From NCBI GenBank assembly GCA_042570925.1, contig JBHPFX010000003.1, positions 10,149-74,148 on the forward strand: a stretch of 64,000 nt of DNA, in the 5' to 3' direction. The notes under the pieces are model-generated. The model did not search any database and was not told the origin of the DNA. It saw nothing but the letters and a program-made list of their open reading frames with translations. Position 1 is the first letter of the stretch, and the number at the start of each line of letters is the position of its first letter. Positions 31,561-64,000 of the stretch are shown in pieces. The position numbers were made by a program, and so were the translations under genes. Origin of the DNA: Patescibacteria group bacterium. Its GTDB lineage: Bacteria > Patescibacteriota > Patescibacteriia > UBA10025.

Positions 31561-31596
31561 TCTTGAATAACTGGATTATGTTGTACTTTTGAAAAA

Positions 31597-31849: not shown

Positions 31850-31851
31850 CG

Positions 31852-33046: not shown

Positions 33047-33819
33047 AATTTTATCGTACGAATAAGGTGTTTGTGAATTTTACCGTTACTGGCAATCAGA
33101 CTTTTACTTTTATAATTCCATTGTTTTCCGTCAAGGTCGGTTACTTGTCCACCTGCCTCTCTTATGAGAAGAACGCCCGCAATAATATCCCACAGGTTTG
33201 ACGGGGGAGCGAGATAGCACCCTTCGATTCTACCGGCAGCCATATAGGCAAGGCTGAGACATCCACTTCCAAAAACACGCGTGTTAAGAAATGATTTCCA
33301 TAAGTATCGAAGCGATTTCGCTATTCGAACTCTAGAACGATAGTCACGTGAATAGCCCACAGAGACAATACTGTGAGAACTACGCTTTTCCGGAGAAACA
33401 CGAATCTTTTTTCCATTGAGTGTTGCCCCCTTTCCTTTTTCAGCAATATAGAATTCATTCAAAACAGGTGCGAAAGTCACGCTTACCAATGGCTCATGAT
33501 TACAGAGAAGAGAAATGGCAACACAAAAAAGCGGATTACCAATCGAGTAATTGGTCGTACCATCGAGCGGATCTATTACCCATTGGTATGTACCCGGATT
33601 GTTTTCGAGTCCCGTTTCTTCGCTTAAATAATCGTGATTCGGAAACTTTCTTTTAATGGTCTTAAGAATAATATCGTTTGCCTCAATATCTGCCTTTGTA
33701 ACTATTTCATGCTTGCTCTTAAGATGAATATCTTTCTTCTTAAGTTTCCGGTGATGTTTTGCCAGATACAAACCGGCTTTCTTCGCCGCCTGGACTGCAA
33801 TGGATCGATATACTGACAT
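33043..33819 (-). CDS. Inositol monophosphatase family protein
   Basis: LSEETG, WVIDPLDGTTNY and the W.D.A.G motif. ATG 33819 (MSVYRSIAVQAAKKAG) is preferred over the track start. Confidence 0.8.
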   Translation of the reverse strand: MSVYRSIAVQAAKKAGLYLAKHHRKLKKKDIHLKSKHEIVTKADIEANDIILKTIKRKFPNHDYLSEETGLENNPGTYQWVIDPLDGTTNYSIGNPLFCVAISLLCNHEPLVSVTFAPVLNEFYIAEKGKGATLNGKKIRVSPEKRSSHSIVSVGYSRDYRSRVRIAKSLRYLWKSFLNTRVFGSGCLSLAYMAAGRIEGCYLAPPSNLWDIIAGVLLIREAGGQVTDLDGKQWNYKSKSLIASNGKIHKHLIRTIKL

Positions 33820-33823
33820 GTTT

Positions 33824-34333
33824 TTAAAGTTCCTCCAATGAAAGTAATTTCGCCTCTCCTGTCGCCGTATCATATGTCGCAAGTGTTGCCGGTGCAAAAA
33901 TCCCACCCAAAGTACCTGGATTTAACATCAAAGTGTTACCCACCTTCTCCTCAGCCTGAATATGATTATGACCGTAGCAGACGAGGTCGTAGTTACCCGA
34001 GGCTGCTAGATTTTTGGCAATAGCTGGGTAATGATTCATGGCGATTTTTTTACCATCAATCTCAATTTCGGCAAGTTCACCATGAAGCAACACGTTATGT
34101 AGCGCTTTTTCACTGATAAGCTTTTGCATCAGAAAACGATCACCATCAACGTTCCCAAATACTACATTAATAGTTCCCGGAAACTTCTCTGCCAGCACGT
34201 TCACAAGTATCGATGGAGCACACAGATCTCCGCAGTGTAATAACGTTTTAATTCCCTGTTTATTAAACCACTCAAGTACTTTTGAAATATTTTCGATATT
34301 GTCGTGAGAGTCGGAAATAATTCCTATAAGCAT
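33824..34333 (-). CDS. YfcE/MJ0936-family metallophosphoesterase
   Basis: ISDSHDN, HCGD, GNVDGD and GHNH motifs. Confidence 0.8.
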   Translation of the reverse strand: MLIGIISDSHDNIENISKVLEWFNKQGIKTLLHCGDLCAPSILVNVLAEKFPGTINVVFGNVDGDRFLMQKLISEKALHNVLLHGELAEIEIDGKKIAMNHYPAIAKNLAASGNYDLVCYGHNHIQAEEKVGNTLMLNPGTLGGIFAPATLATYDTATGEAKLLSLEEL

Positions 34334-50554: not shown

Positions 50555-51487
50555 ATGCCCTCAAAACTCCAAAATTATATTACACAGTATCTCGAGTATC
50601 TTGAGATAGAAAAAAACAAATCCCCTTTAACTGTAAGGAATTATGAATTTTATCTGCGAAGATTCCTTACATGGGGCCAATTAAAAAATCCGGAAGACAT
50701 CACGCTTGAGAAAGTACGACAGTATCGCCTGTTTCTCAACCGTCTTAAAAGCCAGCGAAAAGAATTCGTAAAAAAATCAACGCAAAATTATCATCTCATT
50801 GCCCTTCGATCGTTTTTAAAATATTTAGCGCGTAATGATGTAACAACACTTGCTCCTGAGAAAATTGAACTTGCAAAGATCTCCGAACGCCAAGTTTCAT
50901 TTCTTGAAGGAGATGATCTGGAGCGTTTTCTCGAAGCTCCGTTGAAATCAAAAGAGTCAGAAATTATTCAGCAGCGTGATAAAGCACTTTTAGAACTACT
51001 ATTTTCTACTGGATTGCGTGTATCAGAGCTCGCCTCCTTACAACGCGATTCGATCAATCTTACAAAGGATGAATTCACCGTGCGCGGAAAAGGCGGAAAA
51101 CTACGAGTGGTTTTTCTTTCAAACCAATCGAAGCATTGGATAAAAAAATATCTGGCGACACGGAAAGATGATGCTTCACCACTTTTTTTACGACATGACC
51201 GGGCAGCAGCTTCTGAAAAAGATCCGAAATCAATTACCTCAAGGTCCATTCAGCGAATAGTTGAAAGTTATGCAAAGCAGGCAGGCATTACAAAAAAAGT
51301 CACCCCGCATACACTGCGCCACAGTTATGCGACTGATCTTCTCATGAACGGAGCTGATATTCGCTCGGTACAATCAATGCTCGGGCATGCCTCAATTACT
51401 ACCACACAGATTTATACTCATATAACTAATCAGCAGCTGCGAGACGTGTATAAGGCGTTTCATGCTCGAAGAAGAAAAAAGGAATGA
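50555..51487 (+). CDS. Tyrosine site-specific recombinase (XerC/XerD-like)
   Basis: N-terminal SAM-like domain (YLEYLEIEKN.SPLTV.NY). Catalytic R (GLRVSEL), HTLRHSYAT, GH and the TQIYTH tyrosine. Confidence 0.85.
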   Translation: MPSKLQNYITQYLEYLEIEKNKSPLTVRNYEFYLRRFLTWGQLKNPEDITLEKVRQYRLFLNRLKSQRKEFVKKSTQNYHLIALRSFLKYLARNDVTTLAPEKIELAKISERQVSFLEGDDLERFLEAPLKSKESEIIQQRDKALLELLFSTGLRVSELASLQRDSINLTKDEFTVRGKGGKLRVVFLSNQSKHWIKKYLATRKDDASPLFLRHDRAAASEKDPKSITSRSIQRIVESYAKQAGITKKVTPHTLRHSYATDLLMNGADIRSVQSMLGHASITTTQIYTHITNQQLRDVYKAFHARRRKKE

Positions 51488-51647
51488 TTTGACGAATGTG
51501 ACGTTTGTCCTATACTGATTAGCCAATTTCTTCTACAATTCAACATATTATGCGCCCATAGTTTTCCTCGCATGCGCTCGGAACTTTCAGCCCTCCGCTG
51601 CGCTCAGGACAGGCAACGGATAGAAAAATTGCTTGAACTCCCCTGGT

Positions 51648-51722
51648 GCCCCTGTAGTTCAACGGATAGAACGGTGGCCTTCTAAGCCTCAGATCGAGGT
51701 TCGATTCCTCGCGGGGGCACCA
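51648..51722 (+). tRNA. tRNA-Arg (anticodon UCU), CCA encoded
   Basis: GCCCCTG acceptor, GTTCAACGGATAGAAC D arm, CTTCTAA loop, CGAGGTTCGATTCCTCG T arm, CGGGGGC-A-CCA. One U-U mismatch in the anticodon stem. Confidence 0.8.
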
Positions 51723-51734
51723 GGGGAGTAAATC

Positions 51735-51812
51735 GCATTCGATTCTCGAAGTATAAACGGAAACCCTGAGGATGACACGAAATGTCATGCCGAAGGGCTG
51801 GTGGGCGCACCA
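51735..51812 (+). pseudogene. Degenerate tRNA-Arg 3' fragment split by an insert
   Basis: GCATTCGATTCTCG (T-arm-like), a roughly 50-nt insert, then GGTGGGCGCACCA. Confidence 0.4.
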
Positions 51813-51840
51813 ATCAGCATAATTTGTTATCATTACGTAT

Positions 51841-52116
51841 ATGGACAAGGAGGAACAAAAGAAATCACATCTTATCATCCATTGGAAGCGATGGCTTCTA
51901 GTAATTGTTATCGGTGGGGGTATTGTGGTGGGGTTCGGTCTCTGGGTTTGGAATCTCTATACAGAAAATCAGATCGCTGAATTGATCATTGACACCCGAG
52001 ATACAGTAATTGAAGAACTTGATCGATGTGAGGAATTTCTAGCTTTGCCGGGCGGTGAATTTGATACATATGACTATTGTAAAGAATTTGTAGAAAAATT
52101 TTCTACCCTGCGTTAG
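51841..52116 (+). CDS. Hypothetical small single-TM protein
   Basis: One hydrophobic helix (WLLVIVIGGGIVVGFGLWVW). No motif. Confidence 0.4.
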   Translation: MDKEEQKKSHLIIHWKRWLLVIVIGGGIVVGFGLWVWNLYTENQIAELIIDTRDTVIEELDRCEEFLALPGGEFDTYDYCKEFVEKFSTLR

Positions 52117-52125
52117 AATTATTTT

Positions 52126-52809
52126 ATGCCAACTCTTGCTGTTATATTCTCCGTCCTAGGTATCACGCTTCTCATTATTGGGGGACGGTATCGTTCAATT
52201 CAGGCTGAGATGCGTTCAATTAAACGAATGCTGGTTCGTGAATTACGACCCGGAATTCTTGCTGAGATTTCTGGAACCGCGCAATTAGAGCCGCCGCTTA
52301 TCACACCATTCAGTAAAAAGACCTGCGTATATTACGAATATGAGGTAGAGCGCCTGGAAGAGAGACATGGAAAAACAGAATGGGAACCGATTTGGCAGAA
52401 AAAAACAGATAGTCGGTTTTACGTATATGATGGGACTGGGACTGTTTCAATAACACCAAAAGATGCTTCAATTGATATTCCTGTCATTTCTGAAGGTTCA
52501 TTACAAGCAGGTGACATATATGCGCAAAAAGATCTTCGCGAACTGGTAAATCTCATTTCAGGCTATGAGGCGAGGGTGCGGGAAAAAGCGATTCCCATTG
52601 GTTCATCGACGTATGTGTTTGGTTCGGTGTATTCAAGTGACGATAAGCTCTATATGATGAAGGGACGACGGCCTCTCTATATAAGTACTAAGTCGGAAGA
52701 AATGGTAGAACAGGAAATAGGACGCAAAGGGGCATTATTCTCTATTGCAGGACTCGTCGGGCTCTTTGGGGGCTTGACCTTGATTTTTCTCATATATTTT
52801 GTATTATAG
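52126..52809 (+). CDS. GIDE-domain-like membrane protein (TM, beta-rich domain, TM)
   Basis: N- and C-terminal TM helices flank a segment with C.YYEYEV......W and F.V.DGTG.V.I.P, resembling the GIDE family. Confidence 0.5.
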   Translation: MPTLAVIFSVLGITLLIIGGRYRSIQAEMRSIKRMLVRELRPGILAEISGTAQLEPPLITPFSKKTCVYYEYEVERLEERHGKTEWEPIWQKKTDSRFYVYDGTGTVSITPKDASIDIPVISEGSLQAGDIYAQKDLRELVNLISGYEARVREKAIPIGSSTYVFGSVYSSDDKLYMMKGRRPLYISTKSEEMVEQEIGRKGALFSIAGLVGLFGGLTLIFLIYFVL

Positions 52810-53032
52810 AAAGCTGACATTCGTGGTGGCTATGGGTCGAGGCAATAAGTGAAGCTGAATGCTTCACGCATGCCGAGACGGGCGAAGCGTTGTCCCGAGT
52901 AATCGAGGGACCGTGAAGCCCCGGAGTAGTGGTAGCATCCTTCGACTTCGCTCAGGACATTGCAGAGGCCTGCCGAAGGTCCCGCTCGCCAAAGCCTCGA
53001 AAGACAATTAATTACTGAAAGGGATGTGCGGG

Positions 53033-53104
53033 GGTGACTATGGTGTAGTGGTAGCACAGGGGCCTGTGAAGCCCTTAGCTCGGGTTCAAATCCCGATAGT
53101 CACC
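53033..53104 (+). tRNA. tRNA-His (anticodon GUG) with encoded G-1
   Basis: G-1 + GTGACTA acceptor, GTGTAGTGGTAGCAC D arm, CTGTGAA loop, TCGGGTTCAAATCCCGA T arm, TAGTCAC-C. No CCA encoded. Confidence 0.85.
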
Positions 53105-53210
53105 CCCGCCCACCTCTTTTGTGATTTTTTTGAATTTACTTGCGTGCTTTGGCGGGCAGGGATGACCTGCTCTGAGCGTGGCCCGCCGTAGGCGGGAGAA
53201 GCCGAAGAGA

Positions 53211-53363
53211 GCCTTTAGCTCGGGTTCGAGCCCCGATAGCGACCTTTTTCTCTGAGCATTGTGTTCGAAGAAAAAGGAAAAAACATCTCCTATTCATTGT
53301 GAGGTGTTTTTGGTTCCAGAAAAGAGGTATACTATATTTAGATAATCATTAGAATAAATATGT
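53211..53363 (+). repeat. Composite intergenic element, copy 1 (starts with a long tRNA-His 3'-half-like segment)
   Basis: GCCTTTAGCTCGGGTTCGAGCCCCGATAGCGACC, hairpin 53243-53277, terminator CATCTCC..GAGGTG plus T run, then the GGTATACT promoter. Confidence 0.7.
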
Positions 53364-54743
53364 ATGATTAATCAAAGAGGATTCATTAGTGCAACATTGG
53401 TTGTCATTATTGTAGTGCTCGCAGTTTTTATGGTTGGAGTTGCTTGGTATTATGAGGAGAATAAGGAAGAAATCAGTTCGGAGACAGTAAATACTCCGAT
53501 TAATTCGAATAGCAATATTAATTCATCAATACTTCATAATACTAATTCGATAGCTTCGAATGAACTTTTTCCGAAAGTGGCATATTTAGATTCAGGTAAT
53601 ATATATTCATTAAGTTTGTCATATGCAGACGTACAACTACTTGTTTCAAATGCAACGCCAATCATTGAATACGATATTTCTGATAATGGTCAGCATATTA
53701 TATATCTTGTAGCTAGCGATAATGAAAGCGAGATACATTATTATAACGTTTTGGATGAAAATGATTCCGTAGTATTGAAGGAAACAAATGTTTATTATCA
53801 TAGTATTGCGTTGTCGCCAGATAATACAAAAATTGCATATGCAAAAAAGAATTTCAACAGCTCAGTGAATAAATTTCTTAATCAAGCAATTTATGTAAGC
53901 GACCTTAATGGTAATGATGAGAACAAAATAGTAGATATTGGAAAGACTGAGGATGAAGTTAGTGAATATTACGGTAATGATGTCTGTGAATGGTCAAATG
54001 ACTCCAATCTTATTGGGCTTGAAAAGTGGTCCCCAGAGAGTGATTATTTAGTTTATTATATAAATGATAACTATGAATGTAGTGGTCCAGGGCATTCAAT
54101 AATACACATTACTGATTTGAATGGTAATGAAAGCTTTTTTGATGAACATTTGCCAAATCCAGGGACATATATATTTAATGAAGAAGAAAGGGAGTGGAGC
54201 GCTGCGGATATTTTTTGGCAGACTTTTTCTTCGGATAATGGTGACTTTATTCTTAAACAGCGAGCAGGTATGCCCTTTGTAAATAGTAGAGTAGTATTTG
54301 TCAAGGATGGTGAGGTGGTATCCGCATTTAATACTGTTGATTACCAAGATGACGAATATCAAAATAATACCCAAAGGCTTAGATCACACTATGAATATGG
54401 ATTTGACGTAGTTGGATGGGATGAAAGAATTAGTTATTTTGGGGGTAGGGCAGGTGAACCTGGTACTAATGAAGTGATAAAGACAAACATTGCCGGAGGA
54501 AATATTATTCAGTTAACCAATACTGAGGATGATTTGGCATTTACTCACCCAATAGTAATTGATGATGAGTATGTACTTTTTAGAAGGTATAATATAGATC
54601 CAGTTACTAATCAATACGGAAATACGTCTAGTTCTAAATCAGATACGTATGATATTTTAGTAAAGAATGTTGAAAATAATGAAGAAACTATTATTACTGA
54701 GGGGGCAGCTTTTAATCTGTTGAAGATTTACAGGTTGGAATGA
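53364..54743 (+). CDS. Pilin-signal-like anchored surface protein, family member 1 (C-terminal TolB/beta-propeller-like repeats)
   Basis: MINQRGFISATLVVIIVVLAVFMVGVAWYYEENKEE, an Asn/Ser-rich linker, then repeats such as DISDNGQHIIYL and IALSPDNTKIAYA. Confidence 0.6.
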   Translation: MINQRGFISATLVVIIVVLAVFMVGVAWYYEENKEEISSETVNTPINSNSNINSSILHNTNSIASNELFPKVAYLDSGNIYSLSLSYADVQLLVSNATPIIEYDISDNGQHIIYLVASDNESEIHYYNVLDENDSVVLKETNVYYHSIALSPDNTKIAYAKKNFNSSVNKFLNQAIYVSDLNGNDENKIVDIGKTEDEVSEYYGNDVCEWSNDSNLIGLEKWSPESDYLVYYINDNYECSGPGHSIIHITDLNGNESFFDEHLPNPGTYIFNEEEREWSAADIFWQTFSSDNGDFILKQRAGMPFVNSRVVFVKDGEVVSAFNTVDYQDDEYQNNTQRLRSHYEYGFDVVGWDERISYFGGRAGEPGTNEVIKTNIAGGNIIQLTNTEDDLAFTHPIVIDDEYVLFRRYNIDPVTNQYGNTSSSKSDTYDILVKNVENNEETIITEGAAFNLLKIYRLE

Positions 54744-54792
54744 TTGTTACTTTTTTTGGGTTGATTTGATCATATTGAATCGCTTAGATAGG

Positions 54793-54987
54793 TTTGACAT
54801 ATACCCAAAATCACCAAAAACTCCCATAAGATTAGTTAAAATAACGTACCGATAGCCACCTTTTTCTCTGAGTATTAGATTCGGAGCAAAAGGAAAAGAC
54901 ATCTTCCCCACACCATATAATGGTGTGTGGGAGAGGTGTTTTTGTTAGAGAAATGGTATAATGAATATATAAAATTAATATAATAAA
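54793..54987 (+). repeat. Composite intergenic element, copy 2
   Basis: Box A, CCGATAGCCACC, hairpin 54859-54893, long terminator hairpin 54898-54943, TGGTATAAT extended -10. Confidence 0.7.
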
Positions 54988-55701
54988 ATGCAAATAGCAG
55001 ATAATAAGAAGTTAAAAAAGCATCCCCTTGATTATGCGATAAAATCATCTCGTGTCATAGCCACAATTATCCTTTTTTATGGATTTATGATGGGCTTGGC
55101 AATTGGTTTTTTCGGTATCCCTCTAAACATTACCGTTTATGGTACATCAATTTCTGGATTTATTCCCTACCTTATCGCCATAGTAATAGCTGTAGCCTCA
55201 TTCATTTTATATCCAATATTATTAAAAAAGAAGTATCCTGGCATTAAAACAAATATATATACTATTGGAAAATTAAAAACGCACGTTGGATTATTAACCC
55301 TTATCGCAGGCGGAGCTGGTTTCGTCTTAGCATTATGGGCATATATTCTTCTTTTTATCAAAACATCAGATAATACCTCCATCAATGAATTTCTATATTA
55401 CCCAAACTATGCAACTAAAATTGCATTTATACCTATAATTGCCTCGGTTTATTTTTCTTTTCTTAAAAAAATAATATCTCACTCCCTAAAAGCAATCGAG
55501 CTTGTTTTTCTTGTTTTTTCTACAATCCTGTTAATTATGGTGGCTGCTTTCATTTCTTTTGTGGGCATCAGTAATTCAATGATTGAAAACTGGTGGTTAC
55601 TCATTCCTGACTTGATTGCCGGAGGCTCATCATATACTTTTGCTATGTTCTTTTTGCTAAAATTTAGGCCCACGGAAAATATACAGTCTTCAAGCACTTA
55701 A
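54988..55701 (+). CDS. Hypothetical multi-pass membrane protein
   Basis: Six or so hydrophobic segments. No motif. Confidence 0.5.
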   Translation: MQIADNKKLKKHPLDYAIKSSRVIATIILFYGFMMGLAIGFFGIPLNITVYGTSISGFIPYLIAIVIAVASFILYPILLKKKYPGIKTNIYTIGKLKTHVGLLTLIAGGAGFVLALWAYILLFIKTSDNTSINEFLYYPNYATKIAFIPIIASVYFSFLKKIISHSLKAIELVFLVFSTILLIMVAAFISFVGISNSMIENWWLLIPDLIAGGSSYTFAMFFLLKFRPTENIQSSST

Positions 55702-55780
55702 TAATTGGAGCACTAAAGTTCGAAAACTATCAAATTCAAACAATAAGAACTCTGAACAGTTATTCCTATTGAGCAATACT

Positions 55781-56791
55781 TTAATTGGCTCCTGTAAAGC
55801 TAAAACTTTCGACTACTTCTGTAAAAATCTGCTCCGCAGTTTGTTGAACATCAGCGCCATACAATACGCTAATCTCAAATATTATTGATCCTTCTCCCTG
55901 AGGGCTGTTTATTGTGTCAGTGTTATATATAACCGTCGAATAATTGATAGGTGAATCAGGTGTTTGTTCAGTACCGCTCAGTTTCTTTGCTGCATAGCCG
56001 CCTAAAGTTGAACTTGTTTCACTAGTTAAACTACGAGAATAGTCACCAGAGCTATTAAAATTTGGGCTAGTATATTCATCTTGAGTATCTAACATAACAC
56101 TAATAGACATACAATCTGCGGGTATTGAAAAAATCTCAAAACTTCTAATTAAGCAATCCTCACTTGAGTAATACGTTCTATTGGCGTCATAAATTGACAC
56201 TGTACTTTCAAGGCCTGATTCGCTCAAGTCTAAAAAATATAAATTATCAGGGTACTCAAAAGAAAAACTATAATCATCATTAGTATATGTTAACCAATTA
56301 TCCAGCATCGTGTTTGTTAATTGGGTATTGGTGCTTTCAGTAGAATTTACATTACTTGTATTTATATTATCTATATTTTCATTAATATTTCTAACAAGTT
56401 GGGTATTTGTATTATCTGCAAATAAATTTTCGTTAAGATTCCCTAAGTTAATATTACTATTCTGATTAACTAAAGAATTAACATTAGAGACAGGGGTGTT
56501 TTTTATTACAACACCCTCCGTTTTATTATCTTTATTGAAAAACAAAAAATATACTGCTAAACCAGCTAAGATAACAAATACAACAACTACGATTATAATT
56601 AGTGTGGACTTATTACTAGCGCTTACCGTCACATTTGGCTGTCTAGCACTTTTCTGGACGTCAGATGGATTTAATATTTCAGAAATCATTTCTCGAGTAT
56701 AACCCTGAGCCAATAATTTTTCGGTAATTTGTTCATCTGTTAAGCCAGCAGCCCTTGCCTGCTCTAACCATTGTTTAATTGCATCATTCAT
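55781..56791 (-). CDS. Membrane-anchored surface protein with the N-terminal helical module, an Asn-rich linker and a unique C-terminal domain
   Basis: MNDAIKQWLEQARAAGLTDEQITEKLLAQGYTREMISEIL is about half identical (by eye) to the N-terminus of 23943-26717. TM, then an NVNSLVNQNSNINLGN.. linker. Confidence 0.6.
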   Translation of the reverse strand: MNDAIKQWLEQARAAGLTDEQITEKLLAQGYTREMISEILNPSDVQKSARQPNVTVSASNKSTLIIIVVVVFVILAGLAVYFLFFNKDNKTEGVVIKNTPVSNVNSLVNQNSNINLGNLNENLFADNTNTQLVRNINENIDNINTSNVNSTESTNTQLTNTMLDNWLTYTNDDYSFSFEYPDNLYFLDLSESGLESTVSIYDANRTYYSSEDCLIRSFEIFSIPADCMSISVMLDTQDEYTSPNFNSSGDYSRSLTSETSSTLGGYAAKKLSGTEQTPDSPINYSTVIYNTDTINSPQGEGSIIFEISVLYGADVQQTAEQIFTEVVESFSFTGAN

Positions 56792-56825
56792 AGTTTATAT
56801 ATTTAGTAATCTAACATCCTTTATT

Positions 56826-57010
56826 AAGCTTACCATATACCCAAAATCCTCCAAAACCTTAACAAACTCAGACTTTTTAGTTAAACTAACCTTATCCCTC
56901 GACTCGTTCCACTTGCTCGGGACAGGCGGTAGCGACCTTTTTCTCTGAGCATTTAAGTTCGAAGAAAAAGGAAAAGACATCTCCCCTTATGAGGGAGGTG
57001 TTTTTGGTAT
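56826..57010 (+). repeat. Composite intergenic element, copy 3 (+ orientation between two minus-strand genes)
   Basis: Box A, a G+C tract, GGTAGCGACC, hairpin 56936-56971, terminator 56976-57005. Confidence 0.65.
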
Positions 57011-57013
57011 TAT

Positions 57014-57337
57014 TTATTCGCTACTCAACGCTACAATAATCAAAGTTATAAATGCAAGTACTATTAAAGAAAAATATATAGCAAGTCTACTAATAATTTT
57101 TCCTTTAGACGTATTTTTTTTAGTTTTATAAAGGCTGATAATACCTAGAACAAGAGGTATGAAAAAAGAGATTATAATTAAGTCTATTCGGAGAACTTCT
57201 GATATGTCCATCATAAACAAAATAAAGTTCGTTCCGGCAATTAGAAATAAAACAAAAGCAATAATTGCTAATTTGTTAAATTTCTTCTTTGGTTGTTCTG
57301 ACTGTGGCGCTGGTTGTTGTTTTGTTAGTTCTTCCAT
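57014..57337 (-). CDS. Hypothetical small 3-TM membrane protein
   Basis: Hydrophobic segments only. Confidence 0.45.
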   Translation of the reverse strand: MEELTKQQPAPQSEQPKKKFNKLAIIAFVLFLIAGTNFILFMMDISEVLRIDLIIISFFIPLVLGIISLYKTKKNTSKGKIISRLAIYFSLIVLAFITLIIVALSSE

Positions 57338-57370
57338 ATTTATATCTTTAGTGACTTAATCTCCTGCATT

Positions 57371-57560
57371 AAGTCTACCACATACCTAAAATCCCCTAAA
57401 ACCCTCATAAGATTAGTTAAAATAACGTACCGATAGGGACCTTTTTCTCTGAGCATTGTGTTCGAAGAAAAAGGAAAAAACATCTCCTATTCATTGTGAG
57501 GTGTTTTTGGTTCCAGAAAAGAGGTATACTATATTTAGATAATCATTAGAATAAATATGT
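57371..57560 (+). repeat. Composite intergenic element, copy 4
   Basis: Box A, CCGATAGGGACC, hairpin 57440-57474. Identical to copy 1 from 57438 onward. Confidence 0.7.
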
Positions 57561-58358
57561 ATGATTAATCAAAGAGGATTCATTAGTGCAACATTGGTTG
57601 TCATTATTGTAGTGCTCGCAGTTTTTATGGTTGGAGTTGCTTGGTGGTATGAGGAGAATAAAGAGGAGGTTGCAAATACTCAGGTTGTTAGTAACGAATC
57701 TATTGAAAACAATTCTGTAAATGTGAAGAATTCGAATGCAATAAATTCTAATGCAGCAACGAATACTAATTTCGTTTCCAACACCAATTCAACTACTAAT
57801 GTAAACACAAACGTTACCTCAGATAGTGGCAATAACTGGCGCACAGTTAATTATAATAAAAACGATTTGAGTTTTTTAATCAGCGTTCCTGCTGACTGGA
57901 GAGAAGAAACCAGCCTCTATAATCCACCACGAGAAAGATATTCTTTGATTAGTTATACTTGGCCGCCAGAAAGTGGCGTTACTCAATATCTCAGATTAAT
58001 TGTCAGATATTTTATAAATGATGAAGCCTCATTAAAGGAGTGGGTTGATAAGCACGAAACACATCTCCGAGAAGGTGAACAAAATCATAATCGTCTAACA
58101 GAACTTACTTTGAGCGAAATAACAGTTAATGGAGAGTTAGGATATGCATATGACGCTGATTATAAAAGAACAATTGGCGAGTGGGATGATGAAGGAAATT
58201 ACGTTGGAACTAAAATTGAGCATAAATCATACAAATATATTAATTTTCAAAAAGATAATAAAATTTATCAAATTTATATTGGTGGTGATAATAATCTCGT
58301 AATCGATAATCAGGATTTAATTATTGAAATTATTGACTCCTTTAATTTTCTCGAATAA
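57561..58358 (+). CDS. Pilin-signal-like anchored surface protein, family member 2
   Basis: The first 28 aa are identical to 53364-54743. AWWYEENKEE, an Asn/Thr-rich linker, and an unrelated C-terminal domain. Confidence 0.6.
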   Translation: MINQRGFISATLVVIIVVLAVFMVGVAWWYEENKEEVANTQVVSNESIENNSVNVKNSNAINSNAATNTNFVSNTNSTTNVNTNVTSDSGNNWRTVNYNKNDLSFLISVPADWREETSLYNPPRERYSLISYTWPPESGVTQYLRLIVRYFINDEASLKEWVDKHETHLREGEQNHNRLTELTLSEITVNGELGYAYDADYKRTIGEWDDEGNYVGTKIEHKSYKYINFQKDNKIYQIYIGGDNNLVIDNQDLIIEIIDSFNFLE

Positions 58359-58550
58359 GTCTACCATATACCTGAAATCCCCTAAAACACCCATAAGGTT
58401 AGTACAAATAAGCGACCCCTTCGGCTTCGCTCAGGGCAGGCCGATAGGGACCTTTTTCTCTGAGCATTTACGTTCGGAGCAAAAGGAAAAGACATCTCTC
58501 AGGTTATGAGAGGTGTTTTTTTATAATAGAATAATGCTATAATTTAATAT
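58359..58550 (+). repeat. Composite intergenic element, copy 5
   Basis: Starts right after the stop codon. Box A, CTTCGGCTTCGCTCAGGGCAGGCCGATAGGGACC, hairpin 58451-58486, terminator, then TGCTATAAT 7 nt before the ATG. Confidence 0.7.
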
Positions 58551-58997
58551 ATGAAATTCATTTCTTCATTGCTCATACTCGTATCTAGTATAGCCGGCGG
58601 CATCTTTTTGGCTAGGCTGATAAAGAATAAAATAACTGATTTCAAAAAATACGGAGTCTTGTTTATTATTTATTCATTTGTAAATATTGCACTCCTTGGC
58701 TTAAGTGAGAAGACTCAAGTATTAATAATAGATATATATGTTGCGTGGACTATCGCCTTTGCAGCACTTATTATTTTTTTAATTCTTGTTCGAAAACAAC
58801 CAAGTATAAAAAAAATATTAAGCTTACGAGAAAATGTGAGTTATGAGTGGAGTAAAGATGCTAAGTTATTTCAGAAGGTGATCATACGGCTATCCACTGT
58901 TGGAGCACTTTATGGAGTAATTATATTAGCTTATTTTGACTTATTCGGGATTGTAATTGCGATTATTGAAGTATTAAAGAGAGTTAATCTTATTTGA
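58551..58997 (+). CDS. Hypothetical 4-TM membrane protein (possibly a leaderless mRNA)
   Basis: Hydrophobic segments. The -10 box ends 7 nt before the ATG. Confidence 0.45.
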   Translation: MKFISSLLILVSSIAGGIFLARLIKNKITDFKKYGVLFIIYSFVNIALLGLSEKTQVLIIDIYVAWTIAFAALIIFLILVRKQPSIKKILSLRENVSYEWSKDAKLFQKVIIRLSTVGALYGVIILAYFDLFGIVIAIIEVLKRVNLI

Positions 58998-59082
58998 TTA
59001 CAAACATCTCCCTTTTTGAAGAAGTGTTTTTGGTTGGGAAAAAGAGTATAATATATTTAGATAATCATTCAAATATATACCT
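58998..59082 (+). repeat. Composite element, short form (terminator and promoter modules only)
   Basis: ACATCTCCC..GAAGTGTTTTTGG, then AGAGTATAATATATTTAGATAATCATT. Confidence 0.55.
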
Positions 59083-60147
59083 ATGAATTATCAAAAGGGT
59101 TTTACTCATTGGGTAGTTGTAATTCTCATTTCTGTTATAGCTGTGGGTTTGGTCGGTGCAGCTTGGTATTATGAGGAGAATAAGGAAGAAGTAACCACTA
59201 CGACCAATACAGGCACTATCAATGTAAATACAAATATTGTACCCACTAATTCAGCAGTAAACACCAATACAGCTGTAAATGTAAATAGTTCTACAAACAC
59301 GAACACTGTAATTGATGAAACTGATGATTGGCAAGTACATAGAGATGATTTTAGATACGGCTTTACGTTTAAGTATCCAACTGATTGGGAATTTAGCTTT
59401 ACAGACCAATTAGATAAGTCTGAAATTTTATTTAGAGTATCAAATTCAAATGGCTCAAAATTTGACGTGCTACCATTAGGTGACTTTGATTTTGAATTGA
59501 GCGAAATAATTACATCAGAGACAGTAATAATTGATGGTCAATCAGCACAGAAAACCGTTTATAAAGACTCACCAAATTATGAAATATATTCCATAATCGA
59601 CTATGAATTAAATGAGTGGACATCCTCTAATAGGATTGAGCTTATTCCAACTAATGAAGCAGATGCTGAAATTCTTCAAAATATTCTTTCTACATTCGAA
59701 TTCCTCCAAGACACCTCTGATTGGTTGACGTATACGAATGATGAGTATGGGTATTCTATTAGCTACCCCAATGACTGGACCACAACGTCAACTCTAGCAA
59801 GTCCTGGTTCCATCGGTATCTACGCGCCAAGCGATTCTGCGCATATAACCATTGTTCCCGACTACGGTATCAACACTCTTGGCTTCGACGCTCTCACACA
59901 ATCCACTACACAAACAATATTAGGCGGGGAAGCAGTCACTCAGGTCACTTGGCGAGATGCAGATGGGATGCTAGAGCACTGTTCATACCAATTTGAGCAG
60001 TCACCAAATGAAAGCTGGGTACCCGCTGTGGTGACCAACGAAATACATACGACTACAGAGACTCCACCAGGTAATTTCATCAATTACGAATGTGCGGATG
60101 AAGTGACGGTTCCACAAATCCTCTCCACTTTCCAATTCACCGATTAG
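59083..60147 (+). CDS. Pilin-signal-like anchored surface protein, family member 3
   Basis: MNYQKGFTHWVVVILISVIAVGLVGAAWYYEENKEE, a Thr/Asn-rich linker, and two related C-terminal repeats (DDWQVHRDD..YPTDWEF / SDWLTYTNDEYGYSISYPNDWTT). Confidence 0.6.
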   Translation: MNYQKGFTHWVVVILISVIAVGLVGAAWYYEENKEEVTTTTNTGTINVNTNIVPTNSAVNTNTAVNVNSSTNTNTVIDETDDWQVHRDDFRYGFTFKYPTDWEFSFTDQLDKSEILFRVSNSNGSKFDVLPLGDFDFELSEIITSETVIIDGQSAQKTVYKDSPNYEIYSIIDYELNEWTSSNRIELIPTNEADAEILQNILSTFEFLQDTSDWLTYTNDEYGYSISYPNDWTTTSTLASPGSIGIYAPSDSAHITIVPDYGINTLGFDALTQSTTQTILGGEAVTQVTWRDADGMLEHCSYQFEQSPNESWVPAVVTNEIHTTTETPPGNFINYECADEVTVPQILSTFQFTD

Positions 60148-60189
60148 TACCACAATCTAGCTCAGTACTTGTTTACTTTCGTGTAGTAG

Positions 60190-60395
60190 CTTTCTGGTAT
60201 ACCTAAAATCCCTTAAAACCTTTATAAGATTAGTACAAATAAGCGACCCCTTCGGCTTCGCTCAGGGCAGGCCGATAGGGACCTTTTTCTCTGAGCACTT
60301 ATGTTCGGAGCAAAAGGAAAAGACATCCTCCCTTTTATAAGAGGAGGTGTTTTTGGTAAGAAAGTGATATAATATATCTAACTTAATGAATTACT
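60190..60395 (+). repeat. Composite intergenic element, copy 7
   Basis: Box A and a G+C tract identical to copy 5. Hairpin 60282-60317, terminator, TGATATAAT. Confidence 0.7.
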
Positions 60396-60872
60396 ATGAC
60401 TTTAGATAAACAGACAAATCAAACATTAAATCCATCTTCGAAAAAACCAATAACACTTAAACCGATTATTGCCATATTAATACTTGTTAGTATAGTAAAT
60501 TTATTTTCATTCTTTACTATTGGAGGGTGCAAATACTCACTCATTAACCTTCATATTAATGAGGTGGTACCTACAGATACCATAATTGAGTTTGAGTGTT
60601 CAGGATTAAATGTTAATGGAGAATACTCTGGGAGGGATTTTACAATTGAAGGTACGGCTAATCCAAGTTTTGCTTTTGGAAAATCAAATATAAACATTAT
60701 TGGCAATACTCAGGATGGTAACCAATATGAAGTAAGCGCATACACTCGTTATAATACAATTGGTATTTTTCTAGGTCTATCATTATATTCTTGGCCGATA
60801 TTAATAGTTGTATTAGTAGTCTTACTAATAGTGAATATAAGTAGAAGGAGAATTAAGTCAACAGATTTATAA
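60396..60872 (+). CDS. Hypothetical protein with N- and C-terminal TM segments
   Basis: Hydrophobic ends around a beta-rich middle. No motif. Confidence 0.45.
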   Translation: MTLDKQTNQTLNPSSKKPITLKPIIAILILVSIVNLFSFFTIGGCKYSLINLHINEVVPTDTIIEFECSGLNVNGEYSGRDFTIEGTANPSFAFGKSNINIIGNTQDGNQYEVSAYTRYNTIGIFLGLSLYSWPILIVVLVVLLIVNISRRRIKSTDL

Positions 60873-60899
60873 TAAAATTTGTTTTACTTCTTTCAATAA

Positions 60900-61100
60900 A
60901 ACTCTCGTACACCCAAAATCACCTAAAACACCCATAAGATTATTTAATATAACCTTACCCTTCAACTTCCCCTTCGATTCGCTCAGGGCGGGGCCGATAG
61001 GGACCTTTTTCTCTGAGCATTATGTTCGGAGCAAAAGGAAAAGACATCTCTCTATTCAAGAGAGGTGTTTTTGATTTAAGAAAAGGAGTATACTACAAGT
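60900..61100 (+). repeat. Composite intergenic element, copy 8
   Basis: Box A, CCCTTCAACTTCCCCTTCGATTCGCTCAGGGCGGGGCCGATAGGGACC, hairpin 61004-61038, terminator, promoter. Confidence 0.7.
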
Positions 61101-61748
61101 ATGAATGATTCAATTTCCTATACAATTACCTCCTCTGAATTTGCTAAGAGATTAGAGGCTACAAAATATCGGTTGGTTCCTGTTTTTATCTTTATCATTA
61201 TTGGTCTGGCAGCTTACGCATTCATCGACTCAGGTAGCAGCACTGCAATCTCAGTTCTTGTCGTTGGACTAATATTTATCGTTGCAGGAATAATTAAAAT
61301 TCGATTTCAAAAACCCTCCACAACTAAAATTGATGTTGAAATTAACAGAAATGGTATTACGATTAAAAAGGATAAAGTAATTCAGTATGATTGGAAAGCA
61401 TTTAAGAAAGTTATGACTAGTACTGAATATGTTAAAAGCTATTCTCCAACTTTTTTCAATAGTTTTGGTTTTGAAAGATTATTTTATACTTCTGCACAAG
61501 TCTCAGAAGAAACTCACGGAAGAGTTTTTTATTTGATTTTTAAGAAAGGATCCTCTCTTTATGGTCATCAACATCTGATAGTATATGCTGAGCCCGATAA
61601 CTATCAGGAAGTTGAAAACTTATTACATAAATACCTGCCGCATCCTCAGGAGGCCACTCCAGTAAATAAATTGAAGAATTTCTTAATAGGACTTGCTTTT
61701 GTAGTGATTGCTATCGGACTGGTAGCTTTAATATTTATTATAGTATAG
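61101..61748 (+). CDS. Hypothetical membrane protein (two N-terminal TM segments, a soluble domain, a C-terminal TM)
   Basis: Hydrophobicity pattern only. Confidence 0.45.
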   Translation: MNDSISYTITSSEFAKRLEATKYRLVPVFIFIIIGLAAYAFIDSGSSTAISVLVVGLIFIVAGIIKIRFQKPSTTKIDVEINRNGITIKKDKVIQYDWKAFKKVMTSTEYVKSYSPTFFNSFGFERLFYTSAQVSEETHGRVFYLIFKKGSSLYGHQHLIVYAEPDNYQEVENLLHKYLPHPQEATPVNKLKNFLIGLAFVVIAIGLVALIFIIV

Positions 61749-61845
61749 ATACAATAATCGAAGAAAAGACATCTCCCCTTTTGAGCGAAGTCCCGAACCC
61801 TTTATGTGGTGAGGGAGGAGGTGTTTTTGGTTTTACATATGAATG
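61749..61845 (+). repeat. Composite element, terminator module with a G+C-rich insert in its loop
   Basis: GACATCTCCCC, then the insert TTTTGAGCGAAGTCCCGAACCC.., then GGGAGGAGGTGTTTTTGG. Confidence 0.5.
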
Positions 61846-62175
61846 TTACCTAAAGCATGAACAAGGCTTGTTGCGAAGTATATATACCTGACGGTTTGGT
61901 TTATCAATAAATTTTTTTTGGATTCTTACGCCTATCGCCTTTGTATACTCAAGAGGCGTCAAATGGCAGTAGCCCCGTCTTTTCATCTCGAGGACGAGTT
62001 TTTCATGGCGCATATAGAGAGCTTTGAGCTTTCCTATCCAGCGTTGCGTCTCGGGGTGATTGCGGTACCCGCATTTGTTTTTTGTGAGTATCGACCATAC
62101 GGCGTGCAACTCCCGGTGCTCTCCTAAGAGATGCTGTCTACATAATTTTTTTGGTGCGATATCCCAAATACGCAT
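61846..62175 (-). CDS. Pyrimidine-dimer DNA glycosylase (T4 endonuclease V / DenV family)
   Basis: MRIWDIAPKKLCRQHLLGEHRELHAVWSIL....GYRNHPETQRW matches the family pattern M R.W..P..L....L..E.RE, including the catalytic Glu context. Confidence 0.75.
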   Translation of the reverse strand: MRIWDIAPKKLCRQHLLGEHRELHAVWSILTKNKCGYRNHPETQRWIGKLKALYMRHEKLVLEMKRRGYCHLTPLEYTKAIGVRIQKKFIDKPNRQVYILRNKPCSCFR

Positions 62176-62254
62176 AGAGAAGTAGTATACTAACGAACAA
62201 TTATTAAATCAAAAACACTTCTGTTATTCAAAAAGTGTTTTTGAAAGTCTGAAA

Positions 62255-62548
62255 TTACTTCACGTGTTCTGATACTGCACCTGGGTACATTTGTGCAAGA
62301 TCGCTGACCAAGTCACCAAATGTCATGCCGTCAACACCATGTGCTGCAGGCATACCCATACCGTTTCCACCCATGTTGCTCACGTGTTCAGAGATTACTC
62401 CAGGTTCGAGACTTGAAACCATCATACCAAATGTTTTCCCGTCAACACCATGTGCTGCAGGCATACCCATAGCTACTACTGGAGTGGCAACGAGTGCACC
62501 GAGTCCAAAGATGAATGAGAAGATTAATGCTTTTTTCATGAAGTTCAC
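62255..62548 (-). CDS. Small secreted protein with an internal tandem duplication
   Basis: Signal peptide, then two copies of MGMPAAHGVDG[KM]TFG..VS.L....[AV][IV]SEHV. Confidence 0.5.
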   Translation of the reverse strand: MNFMKKALIFSFIFGLGALVATPVVAMGMPAAHGVDGKTFGMMVSSLEPGVISEHVSNMGGNGMGMPAAHGVDGMTFGDLVSDLAQMYPGAVSEHVK

Positions 62549-62687
62549 CTCCTTTCATACGTAGATAATTTTCATCACTATTCTGTATGCCAAGTGTACT
62601 CGACACCTGAAATTCGGTCGGTATGCAAAAACACAAAAAGATGTGTATTCACATCTTTTTGTAATATTTACTTACTATTATTTGATC

Positions 62688-63479
62688 TTATACAGGACGG
62701 AGCGTGCCAGCAAATACCTGCCATGCGAGCAATGATTTTGCCACAAGGCTTAAAATAATATACGCACGTTCGCCATACAGGTAATCTCGCCACTTGCCGA
62801 CTTTTTTGTACTGCAAGATCATATTAATGGCAAAAGAATTGAAGAAGAGGAATATTGAGAAATAAATCCAGTATACGAACGCTGGCGCTTTATTATCTCC
62901 CTCACCTGCCAAAAACAGGTAAAAACCAACGACCACCCAGGGAATAGCTCCTGCTAATATTCCAAACCAGTATGATGTCCAATTGGTTTTTTCAGTTCTC
63001 TGATTGTGAAGCTCCATCATCCAGCCAAATAAAATCATCATCATATTGAGAAAGAATATCATCAGCAGACCAAGTCCGTCATAAAGACCAACGAGCATTG
63101 CAATAATTACAATCATCAAGGAAGAGCTAAACGCGTATTCTATCCAACGAGCTTTATTAATTCCTATTTTCAAATTGGCCACATATTTTTTATAACCGGC
63201 TGGCAATGAAATGAATAGATGAGCTAAAGCAGATATAAATAAGAACGCAGCCACCAGCGGCCCTATTTGGACGGAGAATTCTGTTTGTAATACTGGTTCT
63301 AATTTTAGTGTGATCGTATTCATTTCCACGAAGGCTGATGTAACTGGAAGCGAGAAATCAGAGCTTAAAAACAGCATCAGAAATCCCTGAATGGCATGCA
63401 TTACCGCCATAATGACATTAAAACGCCTTAATTTTGGAAACTTTGTGTCTTCGATAAATTGTTGATTTTGTTCTTCCAT
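62688..63479 (-). CDS. Heliorhodopsin
   Basis: Collinear with heliorhodopsin 48C12 as I recall it: RWIEYAFSSSLMIVIIA, MILFGWMME, FLFFNSFA, YLYGERAYIILSLVAKSLLAWQVFAGTL, including the retinal Lys in SLVAKS. Seven TM segments. Confidence 0.85.
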   Translation of the reverse strand: MEEQNQQFIEDTKFPKLRRFNVIMAVMHAIQGFLMLFLSSDFSLPVTSAFVEMNTITLKLEPVLQTEFSVQIGPLVAAFLFISALAHLFISLPAGYKKYVANLKIGINKARWIEYAFSSSLMIVIIAMLVGLYDGLGLLMIFFLNMMMILFGWMMELHNQRTEKTNWTSYWFGILAGAIPWVVVGFYLFLAGEGDNKAPAFVYWIYFSIFLFFNSFAINMILQYKKVGKWRDYLYGERAYIILSLVAKSLLAWQVFAGTLRPV

Positions 63480-63524
63480 AGTTATGAATTTAATAATTTA
63501 ATCTTATTGTTTAATTCTAGCATA

Positions 63525-63720
63525 TATGAAAAATCAGCAAAAACCCTCATAAGATTAGTTAAAATAACCATACCCTTCGACTTCCCCTTCGATTCGCTAC
63601 GCTCACTCAGGATTCGCTCAGGGCGGGGCCGATAGGGACCCCATCAAAAAATCATCCTACAGATATGTTCTTAGGGTGGTTTTTTGTTTGAGAAAAATGC
63701 TACAATACATTCAGATAATT
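63525..63720 (+). repeat. Composite intergenic element, copy 10 (lacks the 35-nt hairpin)
   Basis: Box A remnant CCCTCATAAGATTAGTTAAAATAA, a long G+C tract ending GGCCGATAGGGACC, terminator CATCCTA..TAGGGTG plus T run, TGCTACAAT. Confidence 0.6.
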
Positions 63721-63775
63721 ATTAATACTAAAAACTATAGCTTGTTTCATTGCTCCGACAGCAGCAGCAATCATT

Positions 63776-64000
63776 GTGACTGCGGTCAGGAAAAAAATCC
63801 CATCTCCTTACCACATTAAATGGCTTTTTGCCCTTCTTTGGGGTGGAGTGGTATGGCTTATACCGGAACATATCTACCACGGCGAGGTGGTACTCTATCC
63901 GCCCTTCTTTACCGCCGGTCTTGATAACATAATTCCCGAAGTTATCAGGGTTGGCGTTCCCATGACCATCGCTGCAATTACTGTATGGCTAGTTATGATT
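63776..64000 (+). CDS. Hypothetical membrane protein, 3' end beyond the window (start uncertain)
   Basis: The frame is open from 63722 to the window end and is hydrophobic (LFALLWGGVVWLIPEH..). The first plausible start is GTG 63776. Confidence 0.3.
   Translation, partial: MTAVRKKIPSPYHIKWLFALLWGGVVWLIPEHIYHGEVVLYPPFFTAGLDNIIPEVIRVGVPMTIAAITVWLVMI

Follow-up and report, generated by a model that had tools for sequence, protein, structure and literature searches.

A 64-kb stretch of the genome of an uncultured Patescibacteria group bacterium, called the window below and the basis of all element statistics given here, carries a tRNA-His gene (GTG) adjoined by 10.5 kb of low-GC DNA, in which unrelated membrane-protein genes are separated by spacers of ~200 nt that are copies of one composite repeat. 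We conclude that the locus is a flexible genomic island anchored at tRNA-His and made up of seven mostly low-GC membrane-protein units with a portable module at their junctions. The explanation that we favour, with a probability of roughly 0.4, is that cassettes have been gained and shuffled by recombination, either site-specific or homologous, within a conserved 28-nt block of the spacer. The idea of cassette accretion at this locus goes back to an initial annotation of the sequence, and it is in our view plausible and unproven. Full spacer copies are named c1-c8, array genes carry G-numbers, and related loci carry L-numbers.

Eight full copies of the composite spacer, all on the + strand, and two short forms lie between tRNA-His and position 63736. 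The element had been noticed in the initial annotation, the coordinates of which prove right to within ~20 nt, as does its claim of a uniform orientation: all eight cores are on the + strand, and the chance of such agreement under random orientation is ~0.008. The core CCGATAGNGACC, searched with up to one mismatch, gives eight matches, all on the + strand between 53093 and 63640 (0.47 in shuffled sequences). The first hairpin arm CCTTTTTCTCTGAGCA has seven + strand copies with 0-1 mismatches, all inside the array, and the terminator arms AAAAGACATCTC and GAGGTGTTTTTG have seven and ten + strand copies, respectively, restricted to 53-62 kb. The box A pattern matches six times against 0.16 expected, and a seventh, diverged box A in c3 that falls outside the pattern was recovered by nhmmer and alignment; across the searched motifs the chance expectation was 0.16-0.9. 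With an nhmmer profile of the copies, the eight full ones are recovered without exception (E 1e-60 to 4e-37), as are the two short forms, and its sole other + strand match in the window is a marginal one to a GC motif at 52937-52960. Neither motif searches nor nhmmer found the composite spacer in the remaining 53 kb of the window.

The view that the array consists of thirteen single-gene units does not hold. The composite element is present in seven of the 12 gene gaps and absent from G2/G3, G6/G7, G9/G10, G10/G11 and G11/G12, and we therefore count seven units: G1, G2-G3, G4, G5, G6-G7, G8 and G9-G12 (four single-gene units, two of two genes and one of four). Units are 0.5-2.7 kb long and hold one to four genes each; five of the 13 array genes are on the minus strand.

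On the + strand, the modules of the spacer follow each other in the order box A, an optional GC-rich tract, a 12-nt core, a 15-bp inverted repeat, a terminator and an extended -10 promoter. Alignment confirms this order as first described, with the amendment that not all full copies share it: c1-c7 carry the hairpin, while c8 is without it and has CCA and a different terminator. The notion that each unit brings its own terminator and promoter likewise stands for every rightward unit, each of which has its own extended -10 box and terminator; c3 has no such promoter, since its right-hand neighbour G4 is encoded on the minus strand. In the alignment, the most conserved part of the spacer, above the promoter and terminator signals, is a near-invariant block of 28 nt, CCGATAGGGACCTTTTTCTCTGAGCA, which consists of the tRNA-His 3' end and the first arm of the 15-bp inverted repeat.

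That the core corresponds to the 3' end of tRNA-His, with a longer match in c1, was part of the initial annotation and is borne out. c1 shares 34-35 nt with the 3' half of the resident tRNA-His at 83% identity, and it agrees at 32 of 34 positions with the 3' half of the functional tRNA-His of L099, a locus with a 77% identical Xer recombinase. The c2 core CCGATAGCCACC is the exact 3' end of the L099 tRNA-His. In c8 and in a short copy of L004, the core is followed by CCA and then by a terminator that has the blocks AAAATCATCC and GGGTGGTTTTTTG in common with the one immediately 3' of the L004 tRNA-His. In c2-c7 the tRNA similarity is confined to 12 nt, and these cores are assigned to tRNA-His because they are homologous to c1 via the shared right flank. 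Judged by these alignments, the derivation of the spacer core from tRNA-His can be regarded as established.

The left and right halves of the spacer have separate histories, and the switch between them is at the core. c1 and c4 have unrelated left sides and right sides that are 100% identical from the first core base, and c7 and c8 share 30 identical nucleotides that end at the last core base, beyond which they are unrelated. The left-half groups (c2, c4), (c5, c6) and (c7, c8, c3) cut across the right-half groups (c1, c3, c4) and (c2, c5, c6, c7). c1 is composed of a tRNA-like part, core and right half, the internal copies of left half, core and right half, and c8 of left half, core and tRNA 3' flank; the end copies have the form of the half-sites predicted by serial recombination at a tRNA 3' end.

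The cargo differs from its surroundings in composition. G1-G9 (53364-61748) have a GC content of 29-39% and a GC3 of 20-34%, against 44+/-4% and 39+/-6% for core genes; G10-G12 (61846-63479) are native-like at 39-47% GC. All six internal composite junctions touch low-GC genes, and the native-like pairs G10/G11 and G11/G12 have none. Each of the nine proteins G1-G9 has at least one transmembrane-like segment, and none matches a Pfam, NCBIfam or PHROG family above the cut-off. G1 (locus tag ACFL0L_01575) has only three homologues outside its own genome among 5.8 billion protein clusters. The surface proteins first called pilin-like match no pilin family and have no Glu at +5; what G1, G5 and G7 do share is an N-terminal membrane anchor. 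The calls of a heliorhodopsin and a DenV-like glycosylase were right, Pfam confirming both (the latter as Pyr_excise). A phage or plasmid origin of the cargo was considered and rejected: G4 has one weak holin-like PHROG match, there is no other PHROG family, and blastn gave no match in phage or plasmid collections. G11 contains a 46-nt direct repeat (62315-62360 and 62426-62471, 93% identical, 111 nt apart) that gives two GMPAAHGVDG.TFG motifs.

If recombination in the 28-nt block shaped the island, spacer junctions would be hybrid attachment sites at which units are gained, lost and shuffled, with breakpoints predicted inside CCGATAGGGACC(TTTTTCTC). Each unit would start with a right half-junction (hairpin, bidirectional terminator and rightward extended -10 promoter) and end with a left half-junction (box A, with or without the GC-rich motif); as these half-junctions are expression signals, a unit would be insulated and expressed wherever it was inserted, in either orientation. 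c1 would be the fossil 3' half of a tRNA-His unit fused to a right half, and c8 a left half joined to the 3' end of tRNA-His, with CCA and the native terminator retained. The enzyme, if the exchange is site-specific, would act in trans. The anatomy, the tRNA origin of the core, the mosaicism there, the low-GC cargo and the variable genes of relatives are observed; construction of the array by core recombination, a site-specific exchange and circulation of units between genomes are inferences. A broader version, namely that Patescibacteria possess an integron-like cassette system without an integron integrase, with a tRNA-His-derived site, an enzyme in trans (possibly Xer) and nested tRNA genes generated by the same activity, strikes us as unlikely.

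Table 1. Features of the tRNA-His island, its flanks and related loci (window positions unless a locus is named)
Feature	Position	Strand	Details
Xer-type tyrosine recombinase	50555-51487	+	Only recombinase in window; outside island
tRNA-His leader	52891-52960	+	Inverted GC-motif pair 52891-52912, 52939-52960; motif match CTTCGACTTCGCTCAGGAC at 52940
tRNA-His (GTG), array anchor	53033-53107	+	ARAGORN; Rfam tRNA model 53034-53104, 67.6 bits
tRNA-His trailer GC motif, inverted	53140-53205	-	Reads CTTCGGCTTC..CGCTCAGAGCAGG on minus strand
c1	53210-53363	+	Repeat family, alignment; no box A
c1, fossil tRNA-His 3' half	53210-53244	+	
c1, core	53233-53244	+	
c1, hairpin	53243-53277	+	
c1, terminator	53283-53312	+	
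c1, -10 TATACT	53328-53333	+	
G1	53364-54743	+	Open reading frame (ORF)
c2	54793-54987	+	Box A, core CCGATAGCCACC (54849-54860), hairpin, long terminator, promoter TGGTATAAT
G2	54988-55701	+	ORF
G3	55781-56791	-	ORF
c3	56826-57013	+	Box A with 9-nt insert, GC tract, core GCGGTAGCGACC (56926-56937), hairpin, bidirectional terminator
G4	57014-57337	-	ORF
c4	57371-57560	+	Box A, core CCGATAGGGACC (57430-57441)
G5	57561-58358	+	ORF
c5	58359-58550	+	Box A, GC tract, core 58441-58452, hairpin, terminator, promoter TGCTATAAT
G6	58551-58997	+	ORF
Short form G6/G7	58998-59082	+	Terminator and promoter only; nhmmer E 8.5e-07; repeat families
G7	59083-60147	+	ORF
c6	60190-60395	+	Box A, GC tract, core 60272-60283, hairpin, terminator, promoter TGATATAAT
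G8	60396-60872	+	ORF
c7	60900-61100	+	Box A, GC tract, core 60994-61005, hairpin, terminator, promoter
G9	61101-61748	+	ORF
Short form G9/G10	61749-61845	+	Terminator only; nhmmer E 4.9e-05; distal edge of low-GC block
G10, Pyr_excise (DenV-like) glycosylase	61846-62175	-	Pfam
G11	62255-62548	-	Small secreted or anchored protein, no assigned family
G12, heliorhodopsin	62688-63479	-	Pfam
c8, distal half-site	63505-63736	+	Box A (= heliorhodopsin promoter), long GC tract, core 63629-63640; 3' of core: CCA, tRNA-His-type terminator 63651-63686, promoter TGCTACAAT; no hairpin
Heliorhodopsin comparison regions	62688-63566; L004 9914-10792; L095 10001-10804		
MEE(Q/L) module sites	57290-57445, 63432-63645; L003 16974-17125; L004 9880-10048; L096 14171-14325		
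Nested tRNA region, Ile	21885-22320		
Nested tRNA region, Phe/Gly	22440-22620		
Nested tRNA region, Gly/Leu	22740-23200		
Nested tRNA region, Pro/Cys	31470-31910		
Nested tRNA region, Arg	51545-51830		
Nested tRNA region, His	52885-53245		
Nested tRNA in relatives	L001 10985-11146; L002 12480-12660; L003 12200-12500; L099 13430-13640		

The gene order H+-PPase...PNPase-NYN-S15-Xer-tRNA-Arg-p91-GIDE-tRNA-His is kept wholly or partly in L001, L002, L003 and L099, and more loosely in L004 and L095. The gene content 3' of tRNA-His differs in all relatives examined there (L002, L003, L099 and L004). In relatives with a 67-78% identical Xer, the array is absent or represented by one or two copies only. 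L001 is a close relative (86-88% DNA identity) with a contig that ends before tRNA-His, breaking inside the tRNA-Arg region. L006, with a 92% identical heliorhodopsin and from the same sample as the close relative, was tried for a strain comparison and set aside; it carries neither the element nor any further shared gene. As a separate observation, homologues of inositol monophosphatase and Exo_endo_phos lie ~4-6 kb downstream of tRNA-His in L002 (16627-18453), and genes of the same families (28185-28946 and 33043-33906) lie on the minus strand of the window, ~20-25 kb to the other side of tRNA-His; the difference in position is suggestive of a rearrangement that had a breakpoint at this tRNA locus.

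The element family is rare, and three of the four genomes that hold it keep all copies within ~11 kb of tRNA-His. L004 has two: one consists of box A, CGATAGAC, hairpin, terminator and promoter, directly upstream of the heliorhodopsin gene, the other of a truncated box A, GCGGTAGGGACC, CCA and terminator. L003 (= L011 = L091; GW2011_GWA2_48_9) has one box A, 4.7 kb from tRNA-His. Searching species-representative genomes and metagenomes with the strict box A pattern, we obtained single genuine matches, from this GW2011_GWA2_48_9 locus only, plus chance matches. The exact 21-mer of core and hairpin, ATAGSGACCTTTTTCTCTGAG, occurs in none of the genome, metagenome or viral collections, and this form of the element is private to the genome.

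In each of the window, L004 and L095, the heliorhodopsin gene is encoded on the strand opposite to Xer, a few kb downstream of it. Its protein is 90% identical in L004 and 85% in L095, compared with 58-67% and 42-73%, respectively, for the shared core proteins PNPase, NYN, S15 and Xer. At the DNA level the window and L004 are 79% identical over a region that spans box A and ends at the stop codon, a similarity that fits joint horizontal transfer of heliorhodopsin and box A and does not prove it. No element was found in L094 (heliorhodopsin 88% identical) or in L095.

Study of the array also revealed that tRNA genes of this lineage are nested in an unusual way. The window has nine tRNA genes, and nesting was seen in all eight that were inspected (tRNA-Gly(tcc) was left out): a partial 5' copy of the same tRNA lies upstream and a partial 3' copy, often ending in CCA, downstream. 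Both partial copies are interrupted by the GC-rich motif YCCTTCGRCTTCGCTCAGGRCAGG, in opposite orientations on the two sides; the same motif is the consensus of the GC-rich tract of the spacers. RNAfold predicts long leader-trailer helices, with inner acceptor stems extended by 9-10 bp and outer pseudo-acceptors that would pair. In the tRNA-His leader, the motif pair encloses pieces that resemble the D arm and anticodon arm of tRNA-His, and RNAfold pairs the two motif copies with each other and the trailer flanks with the leader; the GC-rich segment of the trailer spans 53151-53213. In L001, the counterpart of the 5' part of the window's functional tRNA-Arg carries a motif insertion in the D loop and is followed by a further tRNA-Arg copy, and this difference points to ongoing tRNA-directed rearrangement in the lineage. 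We found no description of the nested architecture in the literature searched.

A number of results weigh against the assembly of the island by recombination at the core, and above all against the initial annotation's picture of repeated integrase-mediated insertion at the tRNA. The recombinase encoded upstream of tRNA-His had been taken for the island integrase; it groups with syntenic housekeeping Xer proteins, the outcome named in advance as speaking against that role. It is 65-78% identical across Patescibacteria lineages (Kerfeldbacteria, Buchananbacteria, Falkowbacteria and others), and its best models are XerD (251 bits), XerC (247) and XerA_Arch (235; cut-off 220), while the integron-integrase models TIGR02249 and NF011946 score 130.4 bits against a cut-off of 265 and 80.7 against 435. 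The S15-Xer-tRNA-Arg neighbourhood is the same with or without the array, tRNA-His following it in L002, L003, L004 and L099. As far as sequence and synteny place it, the enzyme is a housekeeping Xer and not an island integrase. We found no other recombinase, integrase, excisionase or transposase in the island or in the rest of the 64 kb; Xer is the one candidate enzyme that the window offers, and we see no link between it and the array. The dif consensus that we searched with up to three mismatches, which is the general bacterial one and may not be that of Patescibacteria, has no match in the array and one in the window, inside tRNA-Gly at 29204.

Other points on this side concern the junctions themselves. 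c1 is ancestral: L003 has the orthologous order of tRNA-His, flank, GC tract, 3' fragment, TTTCTC.., terminator, promoter and a G7-like gene, and L002 and L099 have counterparts in the form of a pseudo-3' half of tRNA-His with GC-rich inserts. c1 is thus not a recent scar. Partial tRNA copies at every inspected tRNA gene make a lone tRNA fragment a weak argument for an integrase. The distal boundary at which composition changes (61749-61845) does not coincide with a core, and low-GC G9 shares the last unit with native-like G10-G12. G1, G5 and G7 are paralogues, and from the start of its core c4 is 98% identical to c1 over 238 nt, extending into coding sequence (c1/G1 and c4/G5), which clearly points to ordinary gene conversion. 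Covariation in the hairpin is negligible (one double change in 15 pairs, with too little variation). L096 (Logan SRR24923741) has a box A and the core-like CCAATCGGGACC with no tRNA within 10 kb. The element was not found in viral, phage or plasmid collections: the relaxed box A pattern gave 73 viral matches, none confirmed by the nhmmer profile, and the pattern of core, CCA and terminator gave no viral match. What remains of the integrase-insertion picture is the tRNA-derived core, the mosaicism at the core, the half-sites, the low GC of G1-G9 and the variable downstream genes; what speaks against it is the missing island recombinase, the ancestral c1 and the tRNA copies at all inspected tRNAs.

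The similarity of the spacers also means that assembly of this metagenome-assembled genome from short reads may have misordered units. That the array order is altogether an artefact of collapsed or chimeric repeats we hold to be exceedingly improbable. The repeats are 70-100% identical, the 238 nt common to c1 and c4 are a case in point, and the L001 contig does break in the tRNA-Arg region; however, the eight diverged copies have unique flanks whatever their order, and homologous elements occur in the independent assemblies L004/L005, L003/L011/L091 and L096.

Many features of the spacer can be read in terms of gene expression. Its terminators are intrinsic and many are predicted to be bidirectional (18 terminator-like sites versus 6.3+/-2.5 expected), and extended -10 boxes precede the rightward genes. 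The left edge of box A reads TGGTAGACT, TGGTAAGCT or TGCTAGAAT on the minus strand and resembles these boxes. Box A precedes the start codons of all leftward neighbours (G3, G4 and heliorhodopsin) by 40-90 nt, and the sequence from box A through the first ~10 codons (MEE(Q/L)..QQ) is conserved across four genomes (in the window G4 and heliorhodopsin, in L004 heliorhodopsin, and in L003 and L096 genes of 592 and 415 aa, respectively). From this placement and conservation, box A is predicted to be a portable leftward promoter and leader. The -10 of box A has decayed in c2, c6 and c7, the left neighbours of which are rightward genes. Two alternative origins of the left-hand modules were rejected, namely box A as a decayed tRNA-His (alignment z 0.3-2.3 versus shuffles) and the GC tract as a decayed T arm (z -0.8 to 1.4); pairing between box A and core, considered by eye, was dropped because the box A sequence is constant across core variants.

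Two further observations concern the starts of these genes. Leftward genes that are otherwise unrelated, including that for the 107-aa membrane protein G4, share a promoter, 5' untranslated region and first-codon module, MEE(Q/L)..QQ(P), which looks as if it were a common expression-and-leader cassette fused to different genes. The divergent genes G4 and G5 have an identical start context, ATAAATATG, which forms a 14-nt inverted pair (57330-57343 and 57551-57564) around c4 and was not seen at c6.

The main alternative, which we consider somewhat less likely than core recombination, is that the spacer is a lineage-specific expression module of divergent promoters and a bidirectional terminator that has spread across a hypervariable locus of membrane-protein genes by duplication and homologous exchange. 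Such a module would have been assembled once, from the 3' end and terminator of a tRNA-His unit plus a neighbouring promoter, with the tRNA core as a passenger, and would have been propagated by tandem duplication, unequal crossing-over, gene conversion and gene replacement (e.g. after DNA uptake), with no site-specific system. Every module has a plausible expression role, and the enriched terminators, the -10 boxes and the position and conservation of box A all fit, as do the paralogy of G1, G5 and G7, the conversion tract and the absence of an integrase. A single unequal crossover between a c8-type and a c1-type core would give a junction of box A, core and hairpin. L096, where box A and core are far from a tRNA, also has its own distinct intergenic repeat (TACAACAACGTCTCCGGATCAC..ATGATCCA) between accessory genes (9885-9950, 12855-12885 and 14335-14400), one copy of it directly after box A and core; repeated spacers thus seem a habit of these genomes, and such families may be common in Patescibacteria of this kind. 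However, duplication leaves unexplained why genes that lie between homologous spacers are unrelated to one another and of foreign composition; gene pairs of native composition at this locus have no spacer, nor have the other 53 kb of the window, and what is conserved most is the 28-nt core block and not the promoter or terminator signals.

The 15-bp inverted repeat is 90% paired, with conserved arms and a variable loop of 3-7 nt, and it raises the question of whether each copy encodes a small RNA of ~80-110 nt in a multicopy regulatory family. The RNA would consist of the core (or GC hairpin and core), the 15-bp hairpin and the intrinsic terminator; masking of ribosome-binding sites by the pyrimidine-rich arm ACCUUUUUCUCU, or mimicry of the tRNA by the tRNA-His-like 3' end, could be its mode of action. 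The succession of hairpin, A-rich linker and Rho-independent terminator is of the right layout, G-U pairs are formed only on the + strand, the orientation is uniform, a TAAAAT box stands just upstream of the core in c2, c4 and c8, and L004 keeps the hairpin with one-sided, pair-preserving changes. We nevertheless consider this reading very unlikely. Covariation is negligible, and there is no consistent promoter, as candidate -10 and core are separated by 12-69 nt, a spread that the GC tract causes. In c8 and the copies of L096 and L003, box A is kept, with or without the core, and the hairpin is missing. Among the curated models of Rfam 15, only tRNAs and 16S rRNA reach gathering scores in the window, and at E up to 5 nothing credible appears at 51400-64000. 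The low-GC cargo and the half-sites would be left unexplained.

Finally, the ~200-bp spacer itself could be a non-autonomous mobile element (of MITE, Correia or REP-like type) inserted between existing genes. Correia-type elements are compact repeats with outward promoters and a terminator, as is the spacer, and the G5 stop codon falls inside the conserved left edge of the c5 box A. However, we found no terminal inverted repeats of the spacer and no target duplications. It occurs in one orientation at one locus, with none in the other 53 kb, its left and right halves differ in history, and all genuine strict box A matches are from one locus of one genome; we regard insertion of this kind as highly improbable.

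The remainder of the window is of housekeeping character. Positions 1-50 kb encode gyrase, NusB, RNase III, pyrimidine synthesis enzymes, SMC, S16 and TrmD, as well as 16S rRNA, trigger factor, H+-PPase, NusA, PNPase and S15. Around 20000-24000, + strand genes with a positive GC skew up to ~23 kb give way to minus-strand genes with a negative skew, a pattern of orientation and skew switch as at a replication terminus. Four tRNA genes come after the 16S rRNA gene (20124-21615), and there is no 23S rRNA gene in the window. The S16 ORF (17869-18426) encodes 185 aa, of which only residues 8-66 form the S16 domain; its C-terminal extension includes a 92-nt GC-rich tract (18234-18325) that resembles the motif family of the tRNA flanks.

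The Patescibacteria (candidate phyla radiation) are bacteria with very small genomes that are dependent on other cells and that differ from one another mainly in their surface proteins. To our knowledge, few classical mobile elements have been described in them, and their acquisition and exchange of surface genes are largely unexplained. If the island is a true cassette collector, it would offer a compact, integrase-less route to diversification of the cell envelope, in which the recombination site doubles as a complete expression adaptor, and it would be a new cassette system beside integrons and pdif modules. Even under the conservative reading, there is a portable module of promoters and terminators here, together with a hypervariable locus that is linked to a tRNA and traceable in metagenomes.

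Among known repeats, the Correia elements of Neisseria, ERIC and BOX are ~100-250 bp long, carry expression signals and terminal inverted repeats and are scattered genome-wide in both orientations. The array spacers likewise supply promoters, terminators and hairpins between genes, but within the 64-kb window they keep to one locus and one orientation, have no inverted termini and include a tRNA 3' end. In pdif modules of Acinetobacter plasmids and in IMEX, small gene modules are moved by the host Xer in trans, and pdif sites alternate. Here too Xer is the only recombinase near the array; unlike in those systems, there is no dif-like 11-6-11 site (of the general bacterial consensus), and the junctions are in direct orientation. 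Integrons and CALINs are co-oriented arrays of short gene units bounded by structured recombination sites with halves from different partners; an integron has an IntI with an extra domain, an attC (an imperfect R''-L''/L'-R' palindrome that has extrahelical bases) 3' of each cassette and mostly promoterless cassettes read from Pc. The island shares the co-oriented array, the short units and recombination-site-like repeats with halves from different partners, and it differs in that no IntI is found at the array, each rightward unit has its own promoter and terminator, and five of the 13 genes are on the opposite strand. Compared by eye, its repeat, a plain 15-bp stem with a loop of 3-7 nt beside a tRNA-like core, does not resemble attC.

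Of known systems, the locus comes nearest to tRNA-anchored islands that arise by tandem integration and are marked by partial tRNAs; in tycheposon-fed islands of Prochlorococcus, tandem elements are separated only by partial tRNAs, and newer arrivals push older ones inward (10.1101/2020.12.28.424599). Like these Islander or tycheposon islands, the array is bounded on one side by an intact tRNA, has blocks of accessory genes separated by direct repeats of the tRNA 3' end and has a cargo of distinct composition, and the locus varies among relatives. Unlike them, it is without an integrase, remnant integrase or replication module; in place of multi-kb elements it has units of the size given above, most of its copies keep 12 nt of the tRNA, and a fixed set of promoter and terminator stands at each junction.

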